Made by a program: the position numbers and the translations under genes
Assembly (NCBI GenBank): GCA_946643435.1
Contig: CAMPCD010000002.1
Coordinates: 13,370 to 77,369, forward strand
DNA from: an uncultured bacterium
Lineage (GTDB): Bacteria > Bacillota_I > Bacilli_A > RF39 > UBA660
Length of the DNA: 64,000 nucleotides
Direction: 5' to 3'
The notes under the pieces: generated by a model
Database searches by the model: none
The model's input: only the letters and a program-made list of their open reading frames with translations
Told to the model about the DNA's origin: nothing
Shown here: positions 10,451 through 63,402 of the stretch, piece by piece
Numbering within the stretch: the stretch's first letter is position 1
Layout of the letters: every line of letters begins with the position of its first letter

Positions 10451-10549
10451 TCGGAAGATTTATAAAAGATTAAAAATACATAATTTTTATTAATGAAAAT
10501 AAATAACGTGTTTTTTATATTTGATTAAGTATAGGAAGGGAGAATGTAT

Positions 10550-11059
10550 ATGGATAACTTAAAAGAATATAGTAAAGATGAAATCATTAAAATGCTTGAG
10601 GAAAAGAAGATTAAAGCAAAAGATTTAACTGACTCAGGAATATGTCCTACATGCTTTAATAAAGAAAGCAATGGAGCAGTATTTGGTGATGACACTGATA
10701 AAACAATATATGAAAATGATAAGTTTAGCGTTTTCTTAGTTGGTAATCCAAGAGCTGAAGGACATACAGCAATAAGCACTAAAAAGCATTTTAAAGATAT
10801 GATGGATATTGATGATGATACTTGTAAAGAAATATTTGTACTTGCTAAAAAAGTAATGAATGTAATAAGAGAAGTATATAAGTCAGAAAGTGTTTATTTA
10901 TGTACAATGTGTGATGGACCTATGAATCATTTCCATCTTCAATTGATTCCAAGATATTCATTTGAAGAAAGAGGTTCAGATAATTTCGTAAAACCTAGAT
11001 TTGATTATAAAGAAGATAAAGAAAAAATAGAAAAGTTAAGAGAATTACTAAAGAATTAG
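10550..11059 (+). CDS. HIT-superfamily protein (HxHxQ variant)
   Basis: CPTC zinc-type motif, GNPRAEGHTAISTKKHF and HFHLQLIPR (H-x-H-x-Q as in the GalT-like branch, rather than HxHxH). GGAAGGGAG RBS lies 7 nt before ATG 10550. Confidence 0.7.
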   Translation: MDNLKEYSKDEIIKMLEEKKIKAKDLTDSGICPTCFNKESNGAVFGDDTDKTIYENDKFSVFLVGNPRAEGHTAISTKKHFKDMMDIDDDTCKEIFVLAKKVMNVIREVYKSESVYLCTMCDGPMNHFHLQLIPRYSFEERGSDNFVKPRFDYKEDKEKIEKLRELLKN

Positions 11060-11084: not shown

Positions 11085-11189
11085 TTGTAAAAATAGTAAT
11101 AAAAATACTGATTATTGTATGCATATTATTCTTTTATTATGATAAATACTATGATAAAATTATTATGTATGATAGTAAGGAGTGATAGG

Positions 11190-11765
11190 ATGAAGAAATT
11201 AGGTATGGTGATGTTAAACATAGTATTAATAGTATGGTTTATTATTGCTTTATTTACGACAGCATGCTTGTTATCTTATAACGATTTTAGAGTAACAACA
11301 TTTGGTAATTATTCATTAGTTATAGTAGATTCAGATGAATTAGAACCAGATTATCAAGAAGGATCTTTATTACTTGTTAAAAAGAATGGTAATAGTAAGA
11401 TTAATGTAGATGATAAAATATTCTATTACAATACTTCTAAAGATAATGATACAACTATTTATACTGATGTTATTACAAAGAAAGATGATATCAATAAAGC
11501 AGAGTCCACATTTACTCTAAGTGATAATCAAAAGGTTTCATCAGAGTTTGTGTTAGGTACAACAAAGAGTACAACTGTATTACCTTATTTAGGTACTGCG
11601 CTTGGTATCCTTACATCTAAGTGGGGATTTATGTTTATCATTATATTCCCAACATTATTCATGACATTATATGAGTTATTAATGATAATAGAATTATTCA
11701 GATCCGATTCTGATGAAGATGAAGAGGACAACAAAAATGAAAGACGCGATAAAAAGAAAGAGTAA
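11190..11765 (+). CDS. SipW/Sec11-like signal peptidase homologue with catalytic residues replaced (predicted pseudo-enzyme)
   Basis: N-terminal TM. Core aligns with the two downstream paralogues (IVDSDELEPDYQEGSLLLVKK vs VASGSMEPTLSINDLLIVK and VATGSMEPEYPVGDVIVVKK). C-terminal TM plus acidic tail. The SGSM and THR boxes are not conserved (SDEL, IYTDV). AAGGAG RBS before ATG 11190. Confidence 0.6.
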   Translation: MKKLGMVMLNIVLIVWFIIALFTTACLLSYNDFRVTTFGNYSLVIVDSDELEPDYQEGSLLLVKKNGNSKINVDDKIFYYNTSKDNDTTIYTDVITKKDDINKAESTFTLSDNQKVSSEFVLGTTKSTTVLPYLGTALGILTSKWGFMFIIIFPTLFMTLYELLMIIELFRSDSDEDEEDNKNERRDKKKE

Positions 11766-12309
11766 AATCATGTTATTTAGTATTATGTTCTTACTTATTG
11801 TTGTATTAGTTATAGTTGATACATATGCATTATTTGAGACAAATGGTAGTGCAGATGTTGAATACAATGTTGGTAAGTGGGAAATAAAACTTAATAACGT
11901 TAATATTTCACTAGAAAGAGTTATCACGTTAAATGACTTCGTATATACAGGTTCAACACACGTCGAGGATGGCTATTTTGCACCAGGAGTTAATGCAGAA
12001 TACGAACTAGATATTGATACTAGCAACACAGATACATCTGTAGAATATGATTTATTGATTGATGATAGCCATATTGAATTATATCCTAATATTCATTTTA
12101 AAATAATTGATTTAGATACAAATGAAGAATTAGTAGGTAATAATAAACATGGTGTTATAAGTGTAGATTCTACAAATAAGATTAAAAAGATTAAAGTAGT
12201 ATTAGAATGGGAAGATTTAGAAGAGTATGATGAATCTGATTCAACTCTTATCGGCAAAAGTCTAACATTTAACATGCAAGCTAATTTCAAACAATATTTA
12301 GGAGACTAA
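11737..12309 (+). CDS. secreted protein with SipW-class (TasA-type) signal peptide
   Basis: Basic N-terminus, h-region, then VDTYALFETNGS (compare TasA GGGTWAAFND). C-terminal LEWEDLEEYDESD...SLTFNMQANFKQ signature is shared with paralogues. Start is uncertain (11713, 11719 or 11737); it overlaps the upstream gene. Confidence 0.65.
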   Translation: MKDAIKRKSKIMLFSIMFLLIVVLVIVDTYALFETNGSADVEYNVGKWEIKLNNVNISLERVITLNDFVYTGSTHVEDGYFAPGVNAEYELDIDTSNTDTSVEYDLLIDDSHIELYPNIHFKIIDLDTNEELVGNNKHGVISVDSTNKIKKIKVVLEWEDLEEYDESDSTLIGKSLTFNMQANFKQYLGD

Positions 12310-12323
12310 AGGGGCTGATTGTT

Positions 12324-13229
12324 ATGAACCAAATAAGGATAATAACAAAAAAGATAGAAAATGTTTTATGTGTAGTCTTGTTGATAATATTAATATTTGC
12401 AGTATATGCAAAAGTTAAAATAACGTTCAACAAAGATATACATACTAATTTCTTTGGATACAGAGTATTCGAAGTAGCATCTGGTTCAATGGAACCAACA
12501 TTATCTATAAATGATTTATTAATAGTTAAGGTATCAGATGAAGAGTTAAAAAAAGATGATATCATTGCATACATGAGAGATGATTCAATAATTACCCATA
12601 GAATTATCATGGTTGATGAAAATTCGTTGATAGTTAAAGGTGATGCAAACAATACTATAGATTCACCAATTAACAAAGATCAAGTAATTGGTAAAGTTGT
12701 TAAAGTATTACCTCAATTTGGTGTATGGCATAAGATATTCTCAGAACCTAAAATCTTAGTACTAATGTTTATAACATTATTACTATTTGACTTTGCTCTT
12801 TCATATGGTATTAAGAATGAAGAAACTAAAAAAGATGAAAATGTTTCTTCTAAAGATAAAACTAAGAAGACAACTACTAAACAAAAAGAAGTAGTTGAAG
12901 AAAAAGTAGAAGACAAAGTTGAAGATAAAGAAGAAGAGATAGTAATTAAAGAAATAAAAAATGAAGAAAAGAAAAAGAAGGAACAAAAAGAAAAATTACT
13001 AGAATTCACCAGAAAGATTGATCTTTCTCAATTAGATAATATTATTGATGATAAGACTGTTGATGGAGTTAAAGAAGTATATAAACCTATCAATGATAAT
13101 AAAAAGAAAGAAGAAAAAGAAGGGAAGAAAGAGAAATCTAAAGAAGAAGATTTATCTGAGACTAAAGAATATACAATCAGATTAGACTTAAATGAATTAC
13201 AAAAGAATATTCATAAAAAAGTTAAGTAA
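12324..13229 (+). CDS. sipW: signal peptidase I, ER/SipW type, with ~150-aa K/E-rich C-terminal extension
   Basis: All boxes are present: VASGSMEPTL, IITHRII, VKGDANNTIDSP. A second TM (ILVLMFITLLLFDFAL) is followed by a long KE-rich low-complexity tail. Confidence 0.8.
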   Translation: MNQIRIITKKIENVLCVVLLIILIFAVYAKVKITFNKDIHTNFFGYRVFEVASGSMEPTLSINDLLIVKVSDEELKKDDIIAYMRDDSIITHRIIMVDENSLIVKGDANNTIDSPINKDQVIGKVVKVLPQFGVWHKIFSEPKILVLMFITLLLFDFALSYGIKNEETKKDENVSSKDKTKKTTTKQKEVVEEKVEDKVEDKEEEIVIKEIKNEEKKKKEQKEKLLEFTRKIDLSQLDNIIDDKTVDGVKEVYKPINDNKKKEEKEGKKEKSKEEDLSETKEYTIRLDLNELQKNIHKKVK

Positions 13230-13240
13230 GTGAGGTGGGA

Positions 13241-13840
13241 ATGATGGAAGTAATTAAGAATTTTCTAAAAAATATTAACCTTAATGATTTTAAGAATAGA
13301 CTTATTATTTCCGTTGTTTTTATCATTGTTATTGTTACTATATTCTCAATTAGTTTTACTCAAGCTAGATATGAAACAGATACAACTGTAAGATTATCAC
13401 CTGACTTAGCATTCTTTATCGCAGATGTTCAAAGTGAAACAGGACAAATAAGGTTAGATGGTATGGTTCCTAGTGCAACACCATATCTATATACATTTAA
13501 TGTATCTAATTACTACAAACAAAAGAAAGCTAATGTAGATTTAAAGTATAAGATTGAAATAATAACAACAACTAACATGCCTCTTAGATATAAAGCGTAT
13601 CATGGTGATGATATGACTACGAACATAGTAAGCAGTCAATACTATGATACTGATTCGAATGGTGTTTACTATCAACATTTAGTTATTGATAGTGAATACA
13701 TATTACATTATCAAAATAAAGAAACTGATCAATTTACATTATATGTAGAATATCCTCTAGAATTTAAAAATAACTATAAGGAATATGCAGGTATTATTGA
13801 TCTAGTAGATATAAAAGTAAATGCAGAGCAGGTAGTTTAA
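13241..13840 (+). CDS. secreted protein with SipW-class signal peptide
   Basis: h-region then SISFTQARYETDTT. C-terminal LYVEYPLEF...GIIDLVDIKVNAEQ resembles the paralogue signature. Start could be 13241 or 13244, after GAGGTGG. Confidence 0.6.
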   Translation: MMEVIKNFLKNINLNDFKNRLIISVVFIIVIVTIFSISFTQARYETDTTVRLSPDLAFFIADVQSETGQIRLDGMVPSATPYLYTFNVSNYYKQKKANVDLKYKIEIITTTNMPLRYKAYHGDDMTTNIVSSQYYDTDSNGVYYQHLVIDSEYILHYQNKETDQFTLYVEYPLEFKNNYKEYAGIIDLVDIKVNAEQVV

Positions 13841-13841
13841 T

Positions 13842-14768
13842 ATGAAAAAAGTAATAAGTTTATTAAAAAGAATAAAACCTATTTATTACATTGTATTTAT
13901 GCCTCTATTGATATTTGGTACTTATACTTTTGCAAAGTTTGTTACTGAAGAGTTTCATAGTTACTTTACAAATAGTAAGAATTTCTATTTTACTAGTAAT
14001 ATCCTAACTGAAGATAATAATTTGTATCAAATAAACAACTGGATAGGTATAGGACAATTTAATATTTCATACGAATTATACTCAAAGGAAAACAACTATG
14101 TATTTACTGAATATGATGTTACTTACGTAACTAGTGTGTCTTGTTCAGATGACGTGTTATGTGAAGTAGATAAACCAAGTGGAACAATTTATTCTTCATC
14201 TCATGAAGAAGAAATACATATAAATATAGTTCCTCAAAGATTATTTAATGAAGGAGAAAAAATAGAAATTCAAATAAATGCTGAGTCATCGTCGCCTTAT
14301 GTTAAAAAACTAAGTGCTAAATTCGAATATATTGTAGGTAAACAAGGTGTTACCTATGAAATAGAAGATGAACCTAATAGAGCATATTTATTGTTGAAAA
14401 TAACTAACGCCTTAAACTATTGTACAGTGCAAACAGCATTTGATACTTATAGTGTAGGTGATGCTATTGAATATGATAAATATAGATCATTAAGTGATGA
14501 CAATAAAGCTAAATGTGTTAGTCAACATGCTAAGTTAGACTTTAATCCTAACGATGTAATTATTGATAATACTGGTGATATATTAAAGAAATCAACATTC
14601 ACGACAACACCAATAAGTGGTATTGATTTTATTAATAGATTGGAATTTAATATAGGGCCTCTTACAACAGCTTCGGTTAAATTCTATAAGAATAATCCTG
14701 CTAATAATTATACTTTCCCAGTAGTAAACAATAGCAGCATTATTGATGTTGAAATAACAGACCCATAG
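13842..14768 (+). CDS. secreted protein with SipW-class signal peptide
   Basis: h-region then FGTYTFAKFVTEE. 308 aa with 5 Cys. Starts 2 nt after the upstream stop. Confidence 0.6.
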   Translation: MKKVISLLKRIKPIYYIVFMPLLIFGTYTFAKFVTEEFHSYFTNSKNFYFTSNILTEDNNLYQINNWIGIGQFNISYELYSKENNYVFTEYDVTYVTSVSCSDDVLCEVDKPSGTIYSSSHEEEIHINIVPQRLFNEGEKIEIQINAESSSPYVKKLSAKFEYIVGKQGVTYEIEDEPNRAYLLLKITNALNYCTVQTAFDTYSVGDAIEYDKYRSLSDDNKAKCVSQHAKLDFNPNDVIIDNTGDILKKSTFTTTPISGIDFINRLEFNIGPLTTASVKFYKNNPANNYTFPVVNNSSIIDVEITDP

Positions 14769-14783
14769 GAAGAATGTGAAATA

Positions 14784-15758
14784 ATGGAATACAATGTTAT
14801 AGGAATATATACTAATTTTATTCAATCTAAATTGTTAGAATTATTTAAAATACTATTAAAGTATAAATATAATAGATCTGTATGTTTAAACTTTATTGAT
14901 AGATATATAGATGTAAGATATTACAATGAAACTAACTATCCTAAAGAAAAAGATTTTATTCAAAGATTAAATAGAGAATTAGTAGATGTATACAATCAAA
15001 ATGTTGATGATGATAATAAAGATGTATTAAAGAATATTGTAGCTTTATTTGGCTATATAACATATTTAGACGATTTATATAACATTGTAGAAGATGTAGA
15101 AGTTATTCACACATTAGTTACAGATGAAAACTTAAAGTTTGATAAAACTGATGAATTAGAAGATAAGATTAAAGAATGGTATTTAAGTTTCAATAAAGGA
15201 AAGAATAATTTCCAAAATGCCATTAGTTCAAAAGAGTTCTGTATAACTGAAAAAAGTGTATATAGAAAGTTGCATGAAGTTACTTTAAACCATAATGTTA
15301 AAGTATCTAATCTTTATAGTGAGTATGCAATTAATAAAGCATTTAATTCAGGAGTAGTTAATGAAGATAAAGAGTTTATTACGTATATATTAACTTCTCA
15401 ATTAGTATTAAATAGTGCAATTAATTTGGATTTTTCTTATAAGTATGTTGTACCTTTCTCTGAGTCATATTATTCAAAGGAGAAAAAGGCTGGTAGATTA
15501 TTAAATATTTTAAATAATCCATTAGCTAAGAAGTTAATTAATATTAAAATATATTATAGTAATTATTTAGAGAATAAAGAATTCATCAATGGATTAATAA
15601 AACAAGGTTATTCTTTTGCCTTAGTCCTTGATAATGAATTACAAGATTTAAATGAACTAGTTTTATTTACTTATATTTATGTGTTCGAAGATAGTAATAA
15701 TTTTGATATAATTGTAAGTAATAAAGATAAACTAGGAATTAAAGTAATAAAGGTTTAG
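14784..15758 (+). CDS. hypothetical cytoplasmic protein (324 aa)
   Basis: Long ORF with no TM or signal sequence. Tightly linked to flanking genes (gaps of 15 and 11 nt). No motif recognised. Confidence 0.6.
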   Translation: MEYNVIGIYTNFIQSKLLELFKILLKYKYNRSVCLNFIDRYIDVRYYNETNYPKEKDFIQRLNRELVDVYNQNVDDDNKDVLKNIVALFGYITYLDDLYNIVEDVEVIHTLVTDENLKFDKTDELEDKIKEWYLSFNKGKNNFQNAISSKEFCITEKSVYRKLHEVTLNHNVKVSNLYSEYAINKAFNSGVVNEDKEFITYILTSQLVLNSAINLDFSYKYVVPFSESYYSKEKKAGRLLNILNNPLAKKLINIKIYYSNYLENKEFINGLIKQGYSFALVLDNELQDLNELVLFTYIYVFEDSNNFDIIVSNKDKLGIKVIKV

Positions 15759-15769
15759 GAGGATAGAAT

Positions 15770-17311
15770 ATGGATACATTTTTTAGATTCTTATATGAAT
15801 TTCTCCATCAATTCTTTGATGGGTTAGGATATGTATGCCAAGGAATCGGTAAAGGTTTTGCAACAATCTTTAATATTCCTGGATATATGAATGTATTAAA
15901 TGATTATAAGGCTGATTTTAATATACCTGAATGGATATTTACTGGCCTTACAGTTATTTTATTACTTATTGTATTAGGATTAATAATTGGTTTATTCTAT
16001 TTCCTAATAAGAACAATATTTAAATTTAGAAAAACTGCTATTGATCAAGAAGCACTTCTAGAAGAAGTTGCAAACTTAAATGATGAAGTAGCAAAACTAT
16101 ATAAAGAAAAAGAAGATATACTTGCTATGCAAGTATCTAAATTGGGTATTAGACCTGATGAAGAAGTACCTGAAGGAGTTGAACCAAATGCTGCTTCAGA
16201 AGATGGTGAAGCTAATGGTGAACAAACTTCTGAAATCAGATTCCCTAAACTTAACGATGTTGATATCAAATTTAAAGATTATAAAGTTGCTAACTATAAT
16301 AACACATTTGAGTTACCAGAGTTAGTTGATATGTTTAGAAACTTTGCTGCCAGTCAATTAAAACTATATTATAAGACTGAAATGATAAGATTATTTATCT
16401 CAGCATTAGCATCAACTAAGCTTGTTATCTTACAAGGTATTTCTGGTACAGGTAAAACTTCCTTAGCATATGCTTGGGGAAAATTCTTAAAACATGACTC
16501 ATGTATTGCATCAGTTCAACCATCATGGCGTGATAGAACTGAGTTATTCGGATACTTCAACGAGTTTACTAAACGTTTTAATGAAACAGATGTATTAAAA
16601 CAATTATATGAAGCAAGTTATACTGATGATGTTTATACAGTAATCTTAGACGAGATGAACATCTCACGTGTTGAGTATTATTTTGCTGAAATGTTATCTA
16701 TTCTAGAAATGCCTAACAAAGATGAATGGATAGTTGAAATAGTTCCAAGTGCTTGGTCATCAGACCCAGTTAAGTTAAAAGATGGTAAATTAAAAATACC
16801 ACCAAATGTATGGTACATTGGTACAATCAATAACGATGACTCAACATTCATGGTTACTGACAAGGTATACGACCGTGCTATGCCAATTGATATCAATGAT
16901 AAAGGTGAGGTATTTGTACCAAATGAAGTAGAAGCTCAAGATATCAATTATTCTTATCTTGATTCCAAATTCCAAGAAGCTATTGCTGAACATCAAATAA
17001 GTGAAGAAACACTTAAGAAAATTGATGAAATGGACGATTATGTTATTCAACATTTCCGTATTGCCTTCGGTAACCGTATTGTTGCACACATGAGAAAATT
17101 CGTAGCAGTATTCGTTGGATGCGGTGGAGATGAAATAGATGGAGTAGATTACTTCATAGCTAGAAAGATTTTAAGAAAATTCGAACAATTAAATGTTGCT
17201 TATATTAGAGATGAAATTGATGGTTTTGTTGATTTCTTAAATAAGAAATTTGGGGAAAACAAAATGCATGAATGTATCGAATATCTATTAAGACTTAAGA
17301 AGATGGTATAG
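15770..17311 (+). CDS. membrane-tethered McrB-family AAA+ GTPase
   Basis: One TM (WIFTGLTVILLLIVLGLIIGLFYFLI), a coiled coil, an acidic linker, then LVILQGISGTGKTS (Walker A), TVILDEMNISRVEYYFAEMLSILE (Walker B region) and WYIGTINNDDST (NxxD). These are collinear with E. coli McrB as I recall it: FILQGPPGVGKTF / IIDEINRANLSKVFGEVMMLME / IIGLMNTADRS. AGGAGG RBS. Confidence 0.75.
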   Translation: MDTFFRFLYEFLHQFFDGLGYVCQGIGKGFATIFNIPGYMNVLNDYKADFNIPEWIFTGLTVILLLIVLGLIIGLFYFLIRTIFKFRKTAIDQEALLEEVANLNDEVAKLYKEKEDILAMQVSKLGIRPDEEVPEGVEPNAASEDGEANGEQTSEIRFPKLNDVDIKFKDYKVANYNNTFELPELVDMFRNFAASQLKLYYKTEMIRLFISALASTKLVILQGISGTGKTSLAYAWGKFLKHDSCIASVQPSWRDRTELFGYFNEFTKRFNETDVLKQLYEASYTDDVYTVILDEMNISRVEYYFAEMLSILEMPNKDEWIVEIVPSAWSSDPVKLKDGKLKIPPNVWYIGTINNDDSTFMVTDKVYDRAMPIDINDKGEVFVPNEVEAQDINYSYLDSKFQEAIAEHQISEETLKKIDEMDDYVIQHFRIAFGNRIVAHMRKFVAVFVGCGGDEIDGVDYFIARKILRKFEQLNVAYIRDEIDGFVDFLNKKFGENKMHECIEYLLRLKKMV

Positions 17312-17314
17312 TAT

Positions 17315-18421
17315 ATGAGTGATATTAAGTTATTAGATATATATGATAAAACTCCCCAAAATGTAAAAGATTCGTTTTCTAATAATACTAGATCAGAATT
17401 ATCTGTTTCTACTAATTTCAATAAGGTAGAAGCTTCATATGAATGGTTAGAGTTAATGGAAAATACTGTTAGATATATTGATAACGTATTAAGAAATCCT
17501 AATCGTTTCATCATCAATGAAGAAGAGATAGTTAAAGTAGAATTAGCAAGAAGAATTACAGTAGATAGTATTAGACATCTATCTAAACATACAAACTATA
17601 TTCAAAAAATTGAAGATAATGGAGATGTTAAGCCTTCTAAGATCTTAAATATCAATAAAGATGAGAGTTATAACACATATGAAAATAGATTAGTGTTTAC
17701 TCTTATCAATAACATGCGTGATTATTTAGAAATAAAGAAGAAGGGGTTGGCTAAAGCATCATCCGTAAAAGATACTAAAAAAGCAACTTATAGTGCCAAG
17801 ACTAGAGTAGGTAATGAAAATGTATTGGTTGAAATGAGTTATACATCAGCTTTATCTGATAAAGATGAGTTACAAGGAGAATCACCATTAGAGGAAAGAA
17901 TTGCTAAACTTGATGGTGATATCCAAATGTTAACTGGAAGTAATTTATATCAAACATTACATAAAGCTCACGTAGCTAAAGTTATACCTCCTATTAAAAA
18001 GACAAACGTAATATTAAAGAATACAAACTTCCAATATATTATGAAATTATGGGATTTCTTACAAAGTAATCCTCCAGATGACACTAAAGTTATTAAACAA
18101 AAAAGAGAATTCCAAGATACTGGAATACTTAAAGAATATATGGATTCAACATTCTTACTTAATTATTTAGCAATGAATACATTAAGTGATACAAAATCTA
18201 CTATTGAAAGTAAGGAATTAGTTAGTGAAGTAACTGATAAATTAATACAAAAGATAGTTGAATTAAATCCTAACATGCCTATTACAGAATTAAAAGAAAA
18301 GATAGGTGATAAGTTAGTGATGACAAGATATAAATATGAAGCTTCATTAAGTGAAGTAAATGGTGTATTCTCAAGAAGAATAAAAGCGTATTTAGAGAAA
18401 GTTGAAAACATGGAAATGTAG
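17315..18421 (+). CDS. McrC-N-terminal-like (DUF2357-like) partner protein without a recognisable nuclease motif
   Basis: Starts 4 nt after the McrB-like gene. NPNRFIINEEEIVKVELARRI...ESYNTYENRLVFTLINNM resembles the N-terminal region of McrC-type partners. I saw no PD-(D/E)xK pattern in the helical C-terminal half. Confidence 0.4.
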   Translation: MSDIKLLDIYDKTPQNVKDSFSNNTRSELSVSTNFNKVEASYEWLELMENTVRYIDNVLRNPNRFIINEEEIVKVELARRITVDSIRHLSKHTNYIQKIEDNGDVKPSKILNINKDESYNTYENRLVFTLINNMRDYLEIKKKGLAKASSVKDTKKATYSAKTRVGNENVLVEMSYTSALSDKDELQGESPLEERIAKLDGDIQMLTGSNLYQTLHKAHVAKVIPPIKKTNVILKNTNFQYIMKLWDFLQSNPPDDTKVIKQKREFQDTGILKEYMDSTFLLNYLAMNTLSDTKSTIESKELVSEVTDKLIQKIVELNPNMPITELKEKIGDKLVMTRYKYEASLSEVNGVFSRRIKAYLEKVENMEM

Positions 18422-18429
18422 GTAATAAT

Positions 18430-18975
18430 ATGAAAACAATAATCAATGTAATTAGATCAGTTATAACTTTTGTTTTGATAGTAGTACTAATTGGAGTTGT
18501 AATCCAAAGAGTCACTAATTACCGCCTAGCTATTGGTGATATGTATATTTTCCAAGTAGCTACTGGATCAATGGAACCAGAATATCCTGTAGGCGATGTG
18601 ATTGTTGTTAAAAAGGCAGATCCTAGTACAGTTAATGTAGGAGACGATGTTACTTATAAGACAGGTAAAACTTCAAAAGGTGATGTATTTATAACACACA
18701 GAGTAGTTGAAAAGAGAGAAGAAAATGGTAAATATTATTTTACTACTCAAGGTTTAGTTAACTTAGTTGCTGACCCTGAATTCTCAGAAGATGCTCTTGT
18801 TGGAAAAGTTACATATCATACTGTAGTATTAAGTTTTATTGGTCGTTTAATGAATAATATGATTTTCTATTATTGTGCATTTGTATTTATCGCCTTAAGT
18901 TTTTCATATGATATTATTACTAATTATCTAATTAAAAGGGATGATAAAGATGAAGAAGAACAGGAAGAAGAATAA
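18430..18975 (+). CDS. sipW: signal peptidase I, ER/SipW type (second active-looking copy)
   Basis: VATGSMEPEYPVGDVIVVKK and FITHRVV boxes are present. The third box is diverged (TQGLVNLVADPE). C-terminal TM plus acidic tail DDKDEEEQEEE. Confidence 0.75.
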   Translation: MKTIINVIRSVITFVLIVVLIGVVIQRVTNYRLAIGDMYIFQVATGSMEPEYPVGDVIVVKKADPSTVNVGDDVTYKTGKTSKGDVFITHRVVEKREENGKYYFTTQGLVNLVADPEFSEDALVGKVTYHTVVLSFIGRLMNNMIFYYCAFVFIALSFSYDIITNYLIKRDDKDEEEQEEE

Positions 18976-19582
18976 ACATCTCATTAGAACCTTACGTGTT
19001 CTTATCTTAACCGTCTTTATCATGGCGAATACTCTTGCATGGTTTATCTATGTAACAAGAGTAGATAATAGTGTTAATGTACGTGTTAAAGCATGGAATG
19101 TTACCTTCCAAAGTGGAGATACAGTAATATCTAATAATGTAGATGTAGATATTGATAGTTTATATCCTGGTATGCCAGACTATTCATATCAAATAACTGC
19201 ATATAATAAGTCAGAAGTTACTGCTCAATTAACTTATCAAATACTTGAGGCTAGATTATTAGATACTGAATATAAATCTATAGAATATAAAGAAGAATTA
19301 GGAGAAGAAATTCTTCCAACTGATTTAACTAGTAAACAAATAGAGAATATGTTAAATAATGAATTACCTTTTGTAATTATCATCGGTGTAACTGATGAAC
19401 AAGTAGAAGAACAAAACGGGCAATCAATATTTAGTATATCTGCTAGATGGCCATACGAAGGTAAATCTGATGAAGCTGACACTACTTGGGGCATAAATGC
19501 TTCCAATTATAAAGACGCTCATCCTGACAAATCAAGTATTACATTAAAGATTAAAATTACTATGACACAATCAGAGACATAA
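18950..19582 (+). CDS. secreted protein with SipW-class signal peptide
   Basis: Basic N-terminus, h-region, then MANTLAWFIYVTRVDNSVNVRVKAWNVTF. Overlaps the sipW end. AAAAGGG spacing favours ATG 18950 over 18941. Confidence 0.65.
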   Translation: MKKNRKKNKHLIRTLRVLILTVFIMANTLAWFIYVTRVDNSVNVRVKAWNVTFQSGDTVISNNVDVDIDSLYPGMPDYSYQITAYNKSEVTAQLTYQILEARLLDTEYKSIEYKEELGEEILPTDLTSKQIENMLNNELPFVIIIGVTDEQVEEQNGQSIFSISARWPYEGKSDEADTTWGINASNYKDAHPDKSSITLKIKITMTQSET

Positions 19583-20197: not shown

Positions 20198-20424
20198 ATA
20201 TGCCTCCTTATCTAATTTTATTTTATCAAAAAATAATAGTATATCCTTAATATAATATCAACAAAATGTATATTGGACACGATGTTTACACGCAAAACAA
20301 CTAGATTTAAAATATGATGTACAAATAAAAGTAAAATTTTTAATAAGTGTTGAATATCAATAACAATTATGATAAATTATAGATATATAATATAAGGGAT
20401 ATTATATAATCAGTGGTGAATAAG

Positions 20425-21147
20425 ATGGCAAAAGAAGTAATGATTAGCGCTAAAAAGATTAAGCGTAGAAAAATTGCATCAAGAACTGCTAAGCTTGCTC
20501 TGTTAGGATTGTTAATATTTTTAATGCTTCTATATATAATACTAACTATTATATATACTGAAGGTAAGTTTACTATATCCCTTGATTCAAATGATTTGAT
20601 GAAAAGTGGATTAGCTATTTATGAAAGTTTGAATAATAGCCAAGGTAAACGTGAATTATCAACCGAAACAATACCATTTATGGATAATATTTCCTACAAA
20701 TGGTTGCCTGAAAACATTGATTCAGATGAGTTGGCGGGTTCTCATAATGGTGATAATTATATAGCGTATACATTCTTTGCAGAAAATCAAGGAAATGAAG
20801 TACTAAATTATTGGTACGAATTAATCTTGGATGATGTAATAAAGAACGTTGATGAAGCTATAAGAATTAGAATTTATCGAAATGGTGAGTATAAAACATA
20901 CGCCAAGAGAAATCCTTTAACTGGTGAACCAGAGAAAGGTACTGAACCATTTACAAATATTGATGGTGCAGAAAAAACAATAATATTAAATCATGTTGAA
21001 GATTTTCAACCGGGACAAAGAGATCGAATAACAATTGTAGTATGGCTTGAAGGAGATGATCCAGACTGTCACGACCCACTAATAGGTGGCGAAATCAAGA
21101 TGCACATGGTTATAACAGAAAACCACATCGGAGAGATAAAGGAGTGA
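20425..21147 (+). CDS. N-terminally membrane-anchored protein related to the downstream putative fibre subunit
   Basis: Basic N-terminus plus TM (LALLGLLIFLMLLYIILTIIY). The C-terminus IVVWLEGDDPDCHDPLIGGEIKMHMVITE parallels RIYMWIEGQDIDCENYATGSDITFNLQFSTE of the next gene. Start is 20413 (GTG) or 20425 (ATG). Confidence 0.6.
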   Translation: MAKEVMISAKKIKRRKIASRTAKLALLGLLIFLMLLYIILTIIYTEGKFTISLDSNDLMKSGLAIYESLNNSQGKRELSTETIPFMDNISYKWLPENIDSDELAGSHNGDNYIAYTFFAENQGNEVLNYWYELILDDVIKNVDEAIRIRIYRNGEYKTYAKRNPLTGEPEKGTEPFTNIDGAEKTIILNHVEDFQPGQRDRITIVVWLEGDDPDCHDPLIGGEIKMHMVITENHIGEIKE

Positions 21148-21151
21148 TATT

Positions 21152-22135
21152 ATGTCTAAGACTAGCAAGAAAAGACAAAAAACAAGCAGAAGCCTAATAC
21201 TATTATTACTAATAAGTATAATTATGTTAGGTACATCAACATATGCATGGTTTACAGCAAACAAGGTTGTAACAATCAATTCAATTGATGTTAAAGTAGA
21301 AGCAAGTAATGGTTTACAAATTTCTACTGATGCAAATAAGTGGAAATCTATTATTACTAATGTAGATATCGCATCAGGTTATACTGATCATAAGAATCAA
21401 TTACCTTCTTATGTAACAGCAGTATCAACAGATGGTACAGTTGATTCTACAAAATCACAATTAAAGATGTATAAAGGTACTGTAGCTACTGACCAAGCAA
21501 CAGGTAACTATACATTAACAACTTCATTAGAAAATGAAGCTGCTGGATCAACAGGTAACTTTGTTGCATTTGATGTATTCTTAAGAGTTGATAGTGCAAA
21601 GACAATCTATTTAACTTCTCAATCAAATGTATATGCTAAAGAAGGTACTGAAGATAAAGGATTAAAGAACTCAGCACGTGTTGGATTTGTTAAATTAGGA
21701 AATGCTGTTTCAACTGCATCTACTGCTTCATTAATAGCATTAAATAATCCTGCTGCTAAAGCAATTATTTGGGAACCAAATATTGATGGACATACAGCAA
21801 TTGTTACAGACCAAGTTGCTAGTGAATATGGTATTACTTTAGGTGTTGGAGAAAGAACTGCTTACCGTGGCATTAAGAATGTAATTCCTACAGCTGTAGA
21901 CTTAAAGAATACAGTAAATGGTACTGATACAACTAATACTTCATCAGTTACTCCAGACATTGCTACAACTGTAGCTAACCCTGACTATACTGAAGCTTTC
22001 GATCTTGAAGCTGGTGTTACAAAAATGAGAATTTATATGTGGATTGAAGGACAAGATATCGATTGTGAAAACTACGCAACAGGTTCTGATATTACATTCA
22101 ACTTACAATTCTCAACTGAATCATCAGGAGCTTAA
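21152..22135 (+). CDS. putative major secreted subunit with SipW-class signal peptide
   Basis: MLGTSTYAWFTANKVVTINSIDVKV N-terminus (compare the GTLAYFT-type signal peptides of TasA/BsaA-class proteins). The mature part is A/T/S/G/N/V-rich. GGAG RBS. Followed by the strongest terminator in the locus. Confidence 0.7.
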   Translation: MSKTSKKRQKTSRSLILLLLISIIMLGTSTYAWFTANKVVTINSIDVKVEASNGLQISTDANKWKSIITNVDIASGYTDHKNQLPSYVTAVSTDGTVDSTKSQLKMYKGTVATDQATGNYTLTTSLENEAAGSTGNFVAFDVFLRVDSAKTIYLTSQSNVYAKEGTEDKGLKNSARVGFVKLGNAVSTASTASLIALNNPAAKAIIWEPNIDGHTAIVTDQVASEYGITLGVGERTAYRGIKNVIPTAVDLKNTVNGTDTTNTSSVTPDIATTVANPDYTEAFDLEAGVTKMRIYMWIEGQDIDCENYATGSDITFNLQFSTESSGA

Positions 22136-22149
22136 TAATAAATAATAAA

Positions 22150-22175
22150 AATGAGGTTTACACCTCATTTTTTTA
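22150..22175 (+). terminator. intrinsic terminator after the putative major subunit
   Basis: Hairpin aatgaggt/acctcatt with loop ttac, followed by T7. Confidence 0.75.
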
Positions 22176-22222
22176 GTGTAATTAAATACTAATTATAGTA
22201 TAATTATATTAGGAGAATAGTT

Positions 22223-25200
22223 ATGCATTTTAGTTTTGGCCGAATTAAAAATGTTAAGTTACTAATTCCACTATTACTGTTCGTAATGGTTGTTTTTGTG
22301 TACCATATTTTAGGTACTTTTAGTACAGTAGTAGAGGATAATGCTTATAACGGTATTCCTGCAACATCATTTGCTGGTGGTAATGGTACTGAAATAAATC
22401 CTTATATTATTTCAACTCCTAATGAAATGGATTATTTTAGACTATTAATTACAGGTGAAGAAGCTGAATACTATAGTGATAAATGTTACATGATTACTAG
22501 TAGTTTAAACTTTGGTGATTATGATATAACTATTGATAATGAAGTTCCTTTTAAAGGTAGTCTTGATGGAGATGGACATCAAATATATAATTTGGAGATA
22601 AATAATAGTTTCTTTAAGAATCTTGATGGTGCTACTATTAAGAATCTTGAATTGACTGATATTCAATATTTAACTACAAGTAATGAACATGGTGTATTCG
22701 TTGATAACTCTGTTAATTCTACTTATAACTTAATTAACTTAGATTTTGAGTTTAATAACAATCATGATTATTTAGCTACATTCATTTATAATGATACTGG
22801 ATCAATAATTAATAATGTTGTTATTAATGTTAATAATGTTAAGAATGATACATATTATGGATTGATATATAAAGCTAATCAAACAACTATTAATTCAGCT
22901 TTAACTAATAATGCTTATAATGATATAGCTGAAGATAATACTATAGTTAGAAATATATATCATTATACATTTACTGGTGGAAGAATATTCTCAACTGATA
23001 TAGATAAATTTGAATCTGAAGGATTTAAGATTGAATATTCTTATAGTAAATATGTTATGAAAGATATAATACCTAGTCTAGGTAATGAAAGAATAGGTGC
23101 TTATCAAGAACATGATACTGGTACTTCTGGTAATACTATTTATATCAATAATTTAACTAAAGATTTAGATTATTATACTAGTTTAAATTATGCATCTTCT
23201 ACAAATAGACAGTTACCAACAATGGATAATAAGAATATTTATAATGAAAATAATTTAGTTAAAGTAATGCTTTCTTATTCAGGTGTAGAAACTAATGGTG
23301 GAACTACTTTAACTGGTACTATTTCTTCAACAGAAAATTATAATAAGATTGTTTATTATGATTACATTCCTGTTGAAAATAATAAAATTAAAATAACATT
23401 AATTGATAATCCTTTTGTTAATAGGCCAAATAACAAAGGATTCAATAATTGGATAAGTGATACAAATGGAGTTATATTATCTTATGACACAGTAAGATAT
23501 GAAAGATTCGCAGAACTAAACGTAACTAAAAATGCTGAAAACAAATATGATCCAATTGAAATAAACTTACATGCAAGTTGGGTAGAAGCAGTTAACTATG
23601 GATTATCTGGTAACAACTGGACTAATGCATTTAACTCATTTGATACTAAAGGTTTAAAACAATTTGAAACTACAAGAGAAGAATGTACAAGACCTAGTGT
23701 TCAAGGATATTATTTAGAACAAACTGCTCCAAGATATACTTATTATACTGGTTATTATCGTTCTTCAGGTAGTGGTAATAATGCTACTTATACTTATGCA
23801 ACTGATAGATATTGTAATACTAGAGGTGGTTGTACATATTATGAAGAGATAGAATATGATGAACTTTATGATCCTGACGAAACATATTATACATTTAGCG
23901 GTAATAGAAGATATGTTGCAACACCTGAAGAGATAGGTGTTACGTGTGAAAATGTTCATACAGTAAGTGATACATTCAGTCCTGCCGGATATTATACTGA
24001 AAAGACATTTGGTAGAGGTGCATCTTATACAGGATATTATAATTCATCAGGACAACCTGTTAGTGGAACATGTAATTCTACAAGTTGTACATATTATGAA
24101 TTTATTCAATCTTTTGATGCATATGGTAATAGACCTGTAATAGATTTCACTAAGAATTATTATTATCTTGTAACAAGAGACACTAATATTGCTTATTTAA
24201 CTGGTGATATTACAAATTATTGGTCAAGTTCAAATGCAAGTAATAAACCATTTACTTTAACAGGATTACACAATGGTTATCAAACATCATATGATTGGAC
24301 TGTTACTGGTAACCATATTAAATTATATAATGATACAGCAATCGAACAATTAACAATTTATAATACTAAGAGTTTAAGCACAGATGATGTTGTTGTCTCA
24401 TCTGGTGGTTGGTGGGCAACATATTATGCTGTAATAGATGTTAATTATCATAACTTAAAAGTTGGTAGAGGAGTTAAACAATATAATTCCAATTATGCTA
24501 CATTCGATTACATATTTGGTGGTGAAGAAGGAACTGGTAGTTCTTCGTCAGATACACAATATAATGTAATTGTTGAATCTGGGCATTATAGTTCTATTGC
24601 ATTGACATTACTTGTTGGTGGTAGTGGAACAGCTTATGTAGCTAATAAGACAACTCTTGGATGTGATGTTGATAAAGTATTAGATACTAACAATAATAAT
24701 TTAGAAGTTTATTATCAGGTAGCATCATCATTCTCAGGTACTATAAATTCATCTGAAGAATGTGCTACAAATTTAACAGTTAAGAGTGGTAAATTTGGTA
24801 CATCACAATCTGACATGTATACAGGTATCTATGTTGGAGGATTAACATCTGGTACACATAATGCTGCAAGACGAATAAATGTTGAAGGTGGATGGATTAA
24901 TAACTTAATCGGTGGACCTTTAACAGCTAGTAATAGAAGATTATATAATGATACATATATTTATATGACAGGTGGTACTGTTGATATCATTATCGGTGGT
25001 GCTGGTAGATCTCCTACTTATGGTAACCGTATAATTTCCGTTACTGGTGGTAAAGTTAATTATAGTGTTCTAGGTGGATCTAATGGTTCTGGTAGTGATG
25101 CATCAGGTACTGATGGAACAATCAATGGTTCATCATACATATATATTGGTGGACATGCTACAATTGGTGATACTACTTTAGTTAATAACAATTCTACACT

Positions 25201-28200
25201 TTGGGGTGTTGCTTCTGGTTCAGTCTTTGGTAATGGTAATGGTAAGAGTGGTTACTCGGGAATTGGATCTAATGAAAATTCTTATGTAATTATTGATGGA
25301 AGTGCAGATATTAAAGGTTCAGTCTTTGGTGGTGGTAACTTTGGTGCTACTGGTGTTAACAGTGCAAGTGATACTAACGAAACAAAGATTAATATTCTTG
25401 GCGGAACAATATCAGGAGACGTCTATGGTGGAGGAAACCAAAACGGTGCAGGTTCTACAGATAAGAGAGTAGATATAACTATTACTCAAACTGGTGGAAC
25501 TGTTAAAGGAAGCGTTTATGGTGGCTCTAATATATCAGGAACAATCTATGGTAATACTTCAGTAAATATTACTAAAGGCTCAATAACTAAGAATGTATAT
25601 GGTGGAGGAAAAGGTAATAGTACATACGTAAGAAATAATTCTAGCGTAGTAATAGGAAATACAACTACACCTAATGTTCCAACAATATCAGGAAGTGTTT
25701 ATGGTGGTTCTGGATATGGTACAGTAAATGGTGTTAATACTACAACAGCTACATCAAATGCAGCAACTACTGTAACAGTTAATAATGGTAAGATTACTGG
25801 TTCAGTATTTGGTGGAGGAGAAGGTAGTACAACTTATACTCCATATGTACTTGGTGATATTACAGTTACAATTAATAATGGTAGTATTGGAAATGTGTTT
25901 GGTGGAAATGACCAAGCAGGATCACATACTAAAACTAATAGAGTTTACCTAAAAGGTGGAACTTTAAATAATGCTTATGGTGGTGGTAACAAATCAAGTG
26001 TTACAACTACAAATGTATACTTACAAGGATCTACATTAAGTAATTTATTTGGTGGATCTAATCAACAAGGTGATGTTACTACATCAAATGTAACTATTTC
26101 TTCTGGTAAAGTTAATAATATTTATGGAGGAAATAATGAAGGTGGTACAACAACTACAACACATATTACTGTAGAAGGTACTGCTGATATAACTGGTTCA
26201 GTATTTGGTGGTGGTAACCAAGCTGCTACTGTAACATCAAATGTTATATTAAATTCGGCCGCGCATAAAATAACAGATGTATTCGGTGGTGGTAATGCTG
26301 CTAATGTTACAACAACTAATATCACAAATAAAATGAGTGTTGATAACATGTTTGGTGGAAGTAACTCAGCAGGTACTGTTCAAAACAGTTATATTATCAA
26401 CAATGGTGGAACACATATTAATATTTATGGTGGTAATAACAGAGGTGGTAATACAGTTGATAGTTCAATAACATTTAACAGTGGTACTGCAGCTGCTATA
26501 TTTGGTGGAGGAAACCTAGCAAGTACAGGTACTACACTTATTAACTTAGAAGGTGGAACAGTAACAACTGTTTATGGTGGAGGTAACTCAGCTGGTGCTA
26601 CTTCTTCTACAATAAATAATAATGCAGGAACTATTACAACAATCTATGGTGGTTCAAATGTTACTGGAGATGTAGGAACAACTAATATCAACAATGATAA
26701 TAGTGTAGGTACAATCTTCGGTGGTGGAAATTCGGCTAATGTAGGAACTACAAATATAGATGTTACATCAGGTAATATTACAACAATCTATGGAGGTGGA
26801 AACTTAGCTAAAGTAACTGGAAATACAACATTATCAATTACTAATGCTAATGTTTCATCTAATATCTATGGAGGTGGAAACTTTGGTGTTGTAAACGGTT
26901 CTTCAAATCTTACTGTTATAGATACTACTGTATTAGGTTCTATCTATGGTGGTGGTAATGGTGGACCTGCAACATTACAAGGAAGTACTGAAGTAAATAT
27001 TGGTGGTAATACTGTTGTTGGTACTGAAACATCAGTTGCTCCTCATTTTGGTTCAGTATTTGCTGGTGGTAACTCAGCAGAAACAGGACTTGAAGCAAAT
27101 AATAATTCAGTAGCTAAATTAAATATTGCTGGTGGAACAATTTACGGTAATATTTATGGTGGTGCTAATACATCAGTTATCTATGGAAATACAATAGTTA
27201 ATGTTGGTAAATCTGTAGATAAGGATATCAAAAAAGGCGATATATTTATTAAAGGTCATGTATTCGGTGGTGGTGAAGCAAATGCTGCCGGTGACGAAAC
27301 ATATGACTGGTACTTTATTTCTGTAACACAAGGTGTTGTAATCACAATAGATGCTGATACATATGATAATTTTACTATCAATGGATCATTCTATGGTGGT
27401 GGTAATGCATCTTCTGCTTCAGGAGATTCATACTTATATATTAAGAATTATGGTGCTGGAGAATCACCTAAACGTAATGTATCTATTCAACGTGTTACTT
27501 ATGTTGATATAGATAATTCATCATTATTGTTATTAGGTGCTATCGATAGAGCCAACGATTATGATAAAGAATTATTCTCAATAAGCCGTGTTGTAAATAT
27601 GACTATTAGAAATAACTCTGAGTTATATTTAGCAACAGGTGCTAACTTACTTGAAAACTTTAACTCATTAGATAGTAGTGGTAATCCTGCAGTTGTTACA
27701 ATTACAGAAGATTCTATTACAAAATCTGTTGATAATAGAGTTTATATGTTTGAAGGTAAGAACCTAAATATAGCAAGAGACCAACAAGTAACTGACTACG
27801 GTAAAGTTACAGGTATGTCATTCTTTGGTATGTTTAATTACAATTATGATGGTACAGTTCATACTGGTAACTATGGACATCAATATAATGATGGAGATGA
27901 GTTATCATGGCAAGGTACATTTACAAGAGGTTCTTATGTATTAGGATTACATGAAACTAATCATGATATAACAGTAAATGGATTCTATAGTAACTTCATG
28001 GATGAAGAAACAATGATAAATGATGTTAAATACATTGAACCAACTCCACCTGACTCAAGATACTACATGTGGTTTATTGGTGAAAATGTAATTGAATATA
28101 ACGTTAATTTAACAGCATCTAAATATTCAACATTAGGTTCTGTCGAAGTTTCATTCCTTGAATTCTATGATCCAAATACTTCATTTGAAATTCTTAACTT

Positions 28201-59995: not shown

Positions 59996-60080
59996 TGGTG
60001 CGGGTAAGAGGACTTGAACCTCCACGGAGTAATCCACTAGATCCTAAGTCTAGCGCGTCTGCCAATTTCGCCATACCCGC
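59996..60080 (-). tRNA. tRNA-Leu (anticodon UAG), CCA encoded
   Basis: The reverse complement folds as a cloverleaf: acceptor GCGGGTA/TACCCGC, anticodon stem CTAGA/TCTAG with loop CTTAGGA, a long variable arm, T arm GGAGG-TTCAAGT-CCTCT, and 3' ACCA. Confidence 0.9.
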
Positions 60081-60090
60081 ATAAAAAAAA

Positions 60091-60167
60091 TGGTGGATCT
60101 TATAGGACTCGAACCTATGACCGCCCGGTTATGAGCCGGATGCTCTAACCAACTGAGCTAAAGATCC
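60091..60167 (-). tRNA. tRNA with CAU anticodon (elongator Met or lysidine-dependent Ile2), CCA encoded
   Basis: Acceptor GGATCTT/AAGATCC with a paired 1:72 position (so not an initiator), D arm GCTC-AGTTGGTTA-GAGC, anticodon loop CTCATAA, T arm ATAGG-TTCGAGT-CCTAT. Confidence 0.88.
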
Positions 60168-62022: not shown

Positions 62023-62626
62023 GATAACCCTTAGTATTCTTTTCATCTTTATAGGTATTGCCTTATTAACATTCAATTATTTTGGATCAGTTAAGTCAAA
62101 CCTATTTAATGAAAAAAATATAGAGTTATTAAGTCAACAAATTGAATTACCTGAAGAGGTAAAAACAATAGATGAAGAAGAACCCGACATTACTAGTCCA
62201 GTGCAACCATCTACTACTGGTTATATAGGTTATTTATCAGTACCTGATGTTAATATTAAAAGAGGTTTTGTAGACTTTGATAATCCAGATAATACATTAA
62301 GTAAAAACATAATGCTTATTAAAGGATCATCAATGCCTGATGTAAAAAACGGAAACTTAATATTAGCTGGTCACAATGGTAGATCATGGTATTCATTCTT
62401 CAATGACTTATATAAACTTAAAGATGGTGCTCATGCATATGTTACCTATAATGGTAGAGTGTATGACTATACATTAAAAAATAGATATGATGTACCTAAG
62501 ATTGGTACAATAACAGTCCAAAGAAATGGAGACGTTAATACATTAACATTGATTACATGTCATAGAACAGATAATCATAAACAAGTTGTATTTATATTTG
62601 AATTATCAAATGTAACTATAGCTTAA
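61994..62626 (+). CDS. sortase-family transpeptidase (class not assigned)
   Basis: N-terminal TM, GYLSVPDVNIKRGF, LILAGHNG (His), TLTLITCH (Cys). Overlaps the adhesin 3' end. Start is 61985 (GTG) or 61994 (ATG). Confidence 0.75.
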   Translation: MLLKLQKNAKITLSILFIFIGIALLTFNYFGSVKSNLFNEKNIELLSQQIELPEEVKTIDEEEPDITSPVQPSTTGYIGYLSVPDVNIKRGFVDFDNPDNTLSKNIMLIKGSSMPDVKNGNLILAGHNGRSWYSFFNDLYKLKDGAHAYVTYNGRVYDYTLKNRYDVPKIGTITVQRNGDVNTLTLITCHRTDNHKQVVFIFELSNVTIA

Positions 62627-62646
62627 TAAAAAGGGAAGTGATAATA

Positions 62647-63372: not shown

Positions 63373-63373
63373 T

Positions 63374-63402
63374 AAAAAGGATGTTTAGTAACATCCTTTT
63401 TA
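63374..63402. terminator. bidirectional terminator between convergent genes
   Basis: A5 run, hairpin aaggatgt/acatcctt, then T5. Confidence 0.65.

Follow-up and report, generated by a model that had tools for sequence, protein, structure and literature searches.

The 64,000-nucleotide stretch of DNA analysed here (the window), part of contig CAMPCD010000002.1 of an uncultured bacterium of the order RF39, encodes a protein of 2584 amino acids (aa) in one frame at 22223..29977 (+). We hold with moderate confidence that this giant protein is a long-stalk, rod-like extracellular component of a CoCoPALM-type fibre apparatus, an adhesin or spacer that would be docked via an invariant tail. Structure models divide the protein into a variable head (a cap and two beta-sandwiches), a solenoid that takes up about 1230 aa, and a tail, invariant in length, made of five beta-sandwiches. 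Rather than being a chance neighbour, the gene belongs to a CoCoPALM-type cluster as one of its fixed parts. An earlier interpretation made from the letters of the DNA (the sequence-only reading) had reported a single 7.75-kb open reading frame (ORF) here, which we confirm.

The putative stalk is built from a glycine-containing repeat, x-x-(V/I)-(Y/F)-G-G-(G/S)-N-x7-9-(T/N)-x-(I/V)-x-x-x-G-x-(I/V). The strict motif [YF]GG[GSNA][NEDGK] occurs 24 times in the protein, in agreement with the 24–25 units counted in the sequence-only reading. The spacing of 19–24 aa given there equals the gap between motifs, whereas the start-to-start period is 24–26 aa (regular part, aa 1227–1600). The looser anchor hGG is found 35 times at aa 766–1725, compared with twice in the other ~1600 aa. 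We built AlphaFold2 models from a 37-sequence alignment for aa 40–1200 (model 1; mean predicted local distance difference test (pLDDT) score 88.0, predicted template modelling (pTM) score 0.72) and aa 1400–2584 (model 2; mean pLDDT 87.1, pTM 0.54). DSSP assignments of these models describe aa 646 to about 1873 as an unbroken succession of short strands, essentially free of helices, with pLDDT mostly above 85. Autocorrelation of strand and non-strand states peaks at lags of 24 and 48 at aa 1400–1730 and of 26–28 and 52 at aa 640–1200; the lags match the repeat period, and each sequence repeat therefore corresponds to one coil. The models thus predict a parallel beta-helix (solenoid) fold for aa 646–1873. 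The sequence-only reading had proposed a long beta-solenoid stalk, to be abandoned if structure prediction gave no solenoid; a solenoid is what is predicted, with the autocorrelation and a set of weak beta-helix fold matches pointing the same way.

Along its length the predicted solenoid changes in character. Its first coils (aa 646–871; 24158..24835, +) are irregular in model 1, with long loops and short strands and an autocorrelation peak at lags of 26–28. They are followed by a regular array of about 33 coils of 24–26 aa each (aa 872–1750; 24836..27472, +), defined by the repeat table, the lags of 24 and 48 and pLDDT values mostly above 90. This array is composed of 20% Gly and 36% Ser, Thr or Asn and contains very few charged residues. 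About six more coils without GG follow at aa 1751–1873 (27473..27841, +; model 2 DSSP); they are of an N/S-ladder type (IDNSSLLLLG, IRNNSELYL) and retain 61–63% identity across the family. The solenoid, which includes 33–35 hGG(G/S)N coils, therefore extends past the GG array at both ends, and its ~1230 aa correspond to 46–49 coils at 25–27 aa per coil. Beta-helices rise by 4.8 Å per coil, from which we infer a length of roughly 22 nm.

A Foldseek search with the N-terminal model returned no PDB match below E=0.1. The leading PDB matches were all beta-helix proteins, namely the passengers of SepA, Hap, Hbp and IgA1 protease, CsgA, pectate lyases, MpAFP and the P22 tailspike, with E values of 0.1–2 for the autotransporter passengers, pectate lyase and MpAFP. 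The best match among viral models, and the only one below 1e-3, was a ‘right handed beta helix domain’ protein of Staphylococcus phage SA11 (E=4e-4). The large multi-domain query models blunt such searches. An RTX-like or calcium-binding beta-roll was considered as a family assignment and rejected: the period is 24–26 rather than 9 or 18, the coils are almost without acidic residues and the MpAFP match is non-significant. The hGG(G/S)N repeat of 24–26 aa would add a new type to the catalogue of beta-solenoids.

The predicted tail, at aa 1874–2584 (27842..29974, +), consists of five beta-sandwich domains in model 2 and is the best-conserved part of the protein, invariant in length. Its last three sandwiches (aa 2130–2584; 28610..29974, +) are common to short family members of 1.07–1.24 thousand residues, described below. 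Searching the PDB with the tail model gave 233 fold matches at E<1e-3. Strings of beta-sandwich or immunoglobulin (Ig)-like domains account for every one of the top 50 listed, among them complement MG domains, CfaE/CfaB pilins, an S-layer protein, factor XIII, cadherins and titin. The sequence-only reading was right about the Ig-like character of the C-terminal region; its size of ~850 aa has to be reduced to ~710 aa, given that the solenoid reaches about aa 1873. The stretch after the last GG motif measures 853–858 aa in most homologues. The first tail domain contains the string HETNH (aa 1910–1914; 27950–27964), in which H1910 and H1914 are invariant among the 37 sequences. It may be a metal site. 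As a zincin motif it was rejected because the Glu varies, the family consensus being HxTNH.

The head is much less conserved than the tail. Compared with 36 homologues, the window protein shows identities of 60–72% at aa 1600–2200 and about 50–60% in the solenoid, compared with 17–30% at aa 150–300 and 450–600; there are no gaps after aa 1700. The region before the GG array ranges from ~750 to 1444 aa, and the array itself comprises 24–49 anchors or coils per homologue. A beta-helix cap with a capping helix is predicted at aa 45–289 (22355..23089, +; model 1, pLDDT mostly 80–96). The cap contains an FxGGxGTxxNPYxI entry and a PFxGxxDGxGxxIxNL stretch, and its aa 150–289 are hypervariable in the conservation profile. 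The opening FAGGNGTEINPYIIS...FKGSLDGDGHQIYNL, which the sequence-only reading had associated with the start of beta-helix adhesins, is present and conserved family-wide; in the giant protein it also reads FAGGNGTEINPYIIS...PFKGSLDGDGHQIYNL. At aa 290–645 (23090..24157, +), the DSSP assignment of model 1 and the Cys positions indicate a helix-containing linker and two beta-sandwich domains with Tyr-rich Cys-pair motifs. This region varies most between strains and is the location of lineage-specific inserts; within the species, substitutions are densest at aa 300–650 (24 in 350 aa in one close relative, P0273).

Profile matches in homologues further characterize the head. Partial matches to PF05342 (Peptidase_M26_N) were found in three homologues, at 28.7 (cut-off 27.7), 25.0 and 24.5 bits. 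They cover profile positions 177–250, the last ~70, and fall at the PFxGxxDGxGxxIxNL stretch. A further homologue (P0195) matches GLUG (PF07581) at 17 bits, below the cut-off of 20.5. The giant protein itself (P0001) matches neither profile at E<=1. One family member carries an ALK_LTK_GRD-type glycine-rich domain (PF12810, E=1e-36; P0110 aa 332–586), and two carry DUF285/BspA-type leucine-rich repeats (E=1e-24 to 1e-27; P0266 and P0267, aa ~1070–1190). Because such modules are found in the N-terminal parts of family members, we consider the head to be modular. A variable, module-swapping head combined with a conserved tail would be expected if the protein is an adhesin that a conserved partner holds by its tail.

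To define the genomic context, we compared 80 related loci with 10-kb flanks. The giant gene lies inside a cluster of SipW, TasA-like and McrBC-like genes in ~70 of the 80, in two gene orders. The majority order is 244aa-327aa-GIANT-510aa, where the numbers denote the sizes of the encoded neighbours; the second is 244-327-510-sipW-GIANT-sipW'-...-McrB-McrC. The giant gene comes after the 244-aa/327-aa pair in 71 of the 80 loci, and in 66 of them the 510-aa gene has the giant gene or the 327-aa gene as a direct neighbour. When genomes of the host's order were sampled evenly, the McrB-like GTPase is present in 64 of 201 genomes, and all 44 genomes that encode the giant protein's tail module are among these 64. 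Both the synteny and this 44/44 co-occurrence strongly support the tie to the SipW/fibre system proposed in the sequence-only reading, and establish the giant gene as a fixed part of the cluster.

The giant protein is of an exported type, as judged by a single N-terminal hydrophobic signal with no second transmembrane (TM) segment. The sole hydrophobic segment, at aa 12–33, ends ...HILGTFSTVVED, as the sequence-only reading had noted, and no further TM-like segment follows. Residues 1–34 (22223..22324, +) comprise a basic n-region, a hydrophobic region of ~18–20 aa and the sequence G-T-F-S, and would form a signal peptide or a signal anchor. Directly after them come 7 aa and then YNG (22325–22354, +), which is WDG in most homologues. 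A motif [ST][FYWL][STAG] precedes W[DN]G in 122 of the 128 full-length homologues that have W[DN]G, most often at a spacing of exactly 7 aa (83 cases). The G-T-F-S of the giant protein resembles the T-aromatic-A signals (T-Y-A, T-F-A, T-L-A and similar) of the TasA-like proteins of the cluster. As a positive control, the neighbouring 327-aa protein matches TIGR04088, the SipW-dependent signal model, at 22.1 bits (cut-off 19 bits), and hhalign aligns the giant N-terminus to TasA-like signals weakly, with a probability of at most 25%. On this motif-level likeness, cleavage of the giant protein by SipW is plausible. The weak similarity to the SipW-class motif noted in the sequence-only reading thus comes down to the [ST]-aromatic-small motif after the hydrophobic region; the profile does not support SipW processing, since TIGR04088 misses all eight family N-termini tested.

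A motif scan found no LPxT[GAN], [LIV]PxTG or NPxTG in the giant protein, nor does it have a C-terminal hydrophobic segment, in keeping with the earlier statement that no LPXTG-type anchor is present. The host genome encodes four sortases, so sortase-anchored proteins are to be expected in this organism; the giant protein is not among them. Two of the four sortase genes lie near the window end, at 62234–63971 (G000:C2:75603-77340).

No Pfam or NCBIfam domain was found in the giant protein at E<=1, consistent with the absence of LysM, SH3 and choline-binding motifs noted in the sequence-only reading. Neither the whole protein nor a 37-sequence profile returned a usable match from Pfam, NCBIfam or PDB sequences; the lone PDB match was a Rab GTPase at E=0.79. 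In contrast to this lack of annotated domains, a word-indexed search scored 8000 candidates, of which 2443 reached E<=1e-3. The 120 best-scoring homologues are 1887–3241 aa long, unnamed or ‘hypothetical’, and derive from uncultured ‘Bacilli’, ‘Tenericutes’ and CAG-type gut and rumen metagenome-assembled genomes (MAGs). A scan with one genome per species placed relatives in at least 344 species of uncultured gut Bacilli; among the relatives are two ~1.26 Mb genomes assembled as a single sequence, one of them circular. The C-terminal module was found in 44 of 201 genomes and 31 of 98 genera of the order sample, and in 17 of 399 genomes of a class sample, 16 of these 17 belonging to the window's own family. 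The protein family is therefore lineage-restricted and patchy. It keeps both ends and varies in the middle, ranging from about 1.1 to more than 5 thousand residues (members listed reach 5007 aa). An 855-aa C-terminal query matches at the C-terminus of every full-length protein listed, and shorter entries look like fragments.

We inspected six loci (L085, L086, L087, L088, L089 and L092) from genomes in which the search had matched the last tail part only or, in one genome (G066, one of 20 GTPase-positive genomes without a tail match), nothing. All six encode a protein of the same family, of 1073–1243 aa; examples lie at L087:7790-11467 (+) and L092:5553-8786 (-). The short version occupies the same cluster slot in four loci and in G066, and the sixth contig is too short to reveal the cluster. 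Two short versions that were read whole have the same N-terminus (TM segment, [ST]-aromatic-small, WDG, FxSGxGTxxxPYxI). Of two short versions compared with Pfam, neither gave a match. The last ~450 aa are common to all short versions, and the long GG solenoid is lacking. Loci with short versions contain three 327-like subunit genes, compared with one or two elsewhere. G066, the sole locus of a second GTPase type that we inspected, also encodes a short version. With the same ends and the same slot, the short versions make the family a component of every cluster variant inspected.

In the window, the cluster includes three genes for SipW/archaeal-type signal peptidases (11115–11765, 12324–13229 and 18430–18975, all +); two of them match TIGR02228 at 77.7 and 80.4 bits, and the third is below the cut-off. 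The rest of this part (11115..19582, +) includes small exported proteins with TasA-like (T-aromatic-A-aromatic) signal motifs. The 513-aa McrB-like GTPase (15770–17311, +), whose sole PDB sequence matches are to E. coli McrB (E=3e-4), has a hydrophobic stretch near aa 59–85. It is followed by an McrC-N-like protein (17315–18421, +) that matches DUF2357, the McrC N-terminal region, at E=9e-10. The conserved upstream pair (20413..22135, +) consists of a 244-aa membrane-anchored protein and the 327-aa protein with the SipW signal, which is likely the major fibre subunit. Downstream partners (29974..31682, +) are a 59-aa charged peptide and a 510-aa helical protein without a TM segment. The 59-aa ORF (29974–30153, +), highly charged and helical-looking, shares an ATGA overlap with the giant stop codon and overlaps the start of the 510-aa gene; at 1e-5, a tblastn search of the 80 loci gave no homologue of this ORF.

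The flanks of the cluster are of housekeeping type (10544–11059; 33223–34350), with an HIT-like gene upstream and pyk, an orphan 375-aa gene and trmB downstream. No flanking gene is kept beside the cluster in the 80 related loci, and we therefore conclude that the cluster moves as a unit. Some genomes contain two McrB-like GTPases (for example G021, G103, G095, G088, G126, G072, G081 and G196). The GTPases form two clades, one with 57–77% and the other with 50–55% identity to the window's GTPase, which indicates two paralogous cluster types. An Rfam scan of the window (1–64000) at gathering thresholds found no cyclic di-GMP riboswitch and returned only two tRNAs (59999–60167, minus strand).

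Between the 327-aa gene and the giant gene lies a terminator-like hairpin, AAAAATGAGGT-TTAC-ACCTCATTTTT, with a T-run and a symmetric A-run (22147..22172). It is followed by TATAAT (22199–22204) and AGGAG (22211–22215). Of 14 related loci whose spacers could be analysed, 9 contain a hairpin of this kind. From its sequence, the hairpin may act as an attenuator. This would fit a high ratio of subunit to giant protein, by analogy with the main and accessory subunits of other fibre operons.

A collapsed or chimeric repeat ORF, or another assembly or annotation artefact, is hardly credible as an explanation of the giant gene. Such an error might be suspected in a gene rich in repeats that comes from a MAG of 56 contigs and 80% completeness (1.13 Mb, ~26% G+C), of which it makes up 0.7%. 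However, the repeat units are 60–80% alike at the DNA level and Tandem Repeats Finder detects no array in the repeat region; the repeats are therefore old and diverged, and not prone to assembly collapse. At 90% identity the giant protein belongs to a cluster of nine members from NCBI, ENA and JGI assemblies, three of which are fragments on contigs of 1–3.5 kb. The five other near-full-length members differ from it by 9–79 substitutions without a single internal insertion or deletion, their length differences being confined to the ends (N-terminal truncation by 21 or 68 aa, C-terminal extension by 9 aa). Independent assemblies thus agree on the length, and full-length homologues are known from hundreds of species. 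The sequence-only reading had named fragmentation in other assemblies as a sign of artefact; the gene is intact there. It had also suggested testing for strain-to-strain variation in repeat number; none was seen among the giant protein and these five near-full-length copies.

In the mechanism that we favour, the giant protein would be exported and then probably cleaved at the [ST]-aromatic-small motif by a SipW peptidase of the cluster. The conserved C-terminal tail would dock it to the fibre or to the fibre's membrane base, and the solenoid would be a stiff spacer whose length differs between lineages. The head, which evolves fast and swaps modules, would bind a ligand on the surface of host, food particle or partner cell. 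Because of the hairpin after the 327-aa gene, the giant protein would be made in smaller amounts than the main subunit, as a tip or accessory component. Several observations count against this reading. TIGR04088 matched none of eight family N-termini at E<=10, and the hydrophobic region is long enough that it may be a stable, uncleaved signal anchor, which would invert the proposed polarity. No recognisable adhesin domain is present in P0001, and the beta-helix fold matches are weak. Comparison by hhalign of seven subunit-family alignments with the giant-protein alignment revealed no domain homology to TasA-like subunits: it gave signal or TM alignments alone, at a probability of at most 25%, whereas the strongest inter-subunit controls reached 84–100%. 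Since TasA-like homology is missing, docking by donor-strand complementation is unsupported, and the last tail domain, in the model a seemingly complete 9-strand sandwich, likewise argues against it. A tail of TasA-like pilin type was dropped on the same hhalign evidence, and hhalign also found no domain homology between the giant protein and either the 324-aa or the 510-aa family.

The question of polarity leads to a different arrangement, in which the protein is a membrane-anchored base or nucleator: the signal anchor stays uncleaved, head and solenoid span the wall zone, and the tail is a distal platform that anchors or nucleates the TasA-like fibre, as TapA does. We regard this as a real possibility that falls well short of likely. 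It would account for the hydrophobic region of 18–20 aa that escapes TIGR04088, for the lack of any other retention signal in spite of the genome's four sortases, and for a tail that is the most conserved part, as expected of a partner-binding platform; it also has a precedent in TapA, the membrane-proximal initiator of TasA filaments (PMC10151520). Yet it would place a hypervariable, module-swapping head in the least exposed position, a membrane-anchored TasA-like protein of 244 aa is already encoded beside the main subunit gene, and the conserved [ST]-aromatic-small motif after the hydrophobic region resembles a processing site. It is unlikely that the giant protein works on its own at the surface, as an adhesin or coat protein that shares the location and regulation of the fibre genes and has no physical link to the fibre or the McrB-like machinery. 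The lack of detectable homology to TasA-like subunits would suit that idea, as would a possible -10 element and ribosome-binding site of its own after the hairpin. But the gene sits within the cluster in two different gene orders and co-occurs with the cluster GTPase without exception (44/44), short versions hold the same slot in the divergent cluster variants inspected, and the tail module, always at the C-terminus of family proteins, was not seen elsewhere in the class sample. It is very improbable that the protein is a secreted enzyme, whether a polysaccharide lyase or hydrolase with a beta-helix or a protease of the M26 type. The weak resemblance in fold to pectate lyases, tailspikes and IgA1 proteases, the partial M26_N matches in homologues and the HETNH string point in that direction; against it, no catalytic family matches at E<=1, the Glu that HExxH calls for is not conserved, PF05342 represents the non-catalytic N-terminal region of M26 proteases, and the GG array is nearly free of charged residues.

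Thousands of proteins from abundant, uncultured gut bacteria belong to this family, which is without annotation, a Pfam or NCBIfam model or a solved relative. A fixed yet length-variable component gives the barely described McrBC-linked fibre clusters a likely business end and thereby defines testable parts: a signal cleavage site, a docking tail and a variable head. Should the head be an adhesin, it would be a candidate for the factor that determines how these small-genome bacteria attach in the gut. More tentatively, and with little confidence, we suggest that the protein is the cargo or tip of an unrecognised GTP-dependent Gram-positive appendage. In such a device, small beta-sandwich subunits would be built into a fibre by dedicated SipW peptidases together with an McrB/McrC motor that stems from a restriction system. 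The fibre would carry one head-stalk-tail rod, with evolution tuning the stalk from about 1.1 to more than 5 thousand residues, for attachment of reduced-genome gut Bacilli to the host or partner cells on which they depend.

Among known systems, the closest in gene content is CoCoPALM, a class that PMC11090510 names in one paragraph, deferring its description. Like the class as outlined there, the window cluster has a McrB-type GTPase with an N-terminal TM/coiled-coil part, an McrC-like partner and genes of the signal-peptidase family. The passages of that paper that concern the class do not mention a giant beta-helix protein, so the long and short family members would be an additional component. 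The TasA/TapA/SipW system of B. subtilis (PMC9674648, PMC10151520) shares with the cluster the SipW-type peptidases and the exported beta-sandwich subunits with a T-aromatic-A signal motif, and a similar [ST]-aromatic-small motif is present in the giant protein's signal. TapA is an accessory protein rarer than the main subunit (PMC9674648, PMC10151520), as the giant protein would be. The giant protein is ten times larger than TapA and has a solenoid. It has no homology to TasA-like proteins and no TIGR04088 match; the TapA model gave insignificant matches (E ~0.1) in one homologue and one neighbour only. The B. subtilis operon, moreover, encodes no GTPase.

With autotransporter and Pmp passengers, the giant protein shares Gly-containing repeats of ~25 aa and, in the models, a long single-chain parallel beta-helix, a rigid stalk that would present a head with an adhesive or enzymatic role; passengers (SepA, Hap, Hbp and IgA1 protease) are also its top, non-significant PDB fold matches. 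The resemblance to Pmp and autotransporters drawn in the sequence-only reading is sound as an analogy of shape. It does not extend further, as there is no Chlam_PMP (PF02415) match at E<=1, no GGA(I/L/V)/FxxN motifs, no C-terminal beta-barrel and no outer membrane, and the polarity is opposite, with the anchor-like conserved part of the giant protein being a C-terminal array of Ig-like beta-sandwiches. Donor-strand tip adhesins such as FimH, PapG and CfaE likewise combine a variable N-terminal binding part with a conserved Ig-like C-terminal part that joins the fibre, and are expressed below the main subunit gene, as we infer for the giant gene. CfaE/CfaB are among the significant tail fold matches, although such matches are generic to Ig-like arrays; the giant locus differs in having no chaperone-usher machinery, and the giant protein is ~8 times larger. 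The IgA1 protease/Zmp (PF05342) and GLUG (PF07581) proteins of Gram-positive cocci have the same FxGGxGTxxxPYxI entry and PFxGxxDGxGxxIxNL stretch, but the giant protein has no M26 catalytic domain, LPXTG motif or match of its own to these profiles at E<=1.

Membership in the Pmp/autotransporter, TasA and LPXTG groups was rejected because the Pmp repeat and beta-barrel, a TasA-like domain (by profile comparison) and the LPXTG motif are absent. By analogy, the giant protein may best be likened to beta-helical stalk adhesins, and perhaps to the two-domain tip adhesins of donor-strand pili, although it belongs to neither group. Surface proteins with a long beta-solenoid are already known as a kind; new here are the repeat type, the unannotated family and its constant yet length-variable role in a GTPase-linked fibre cluster.

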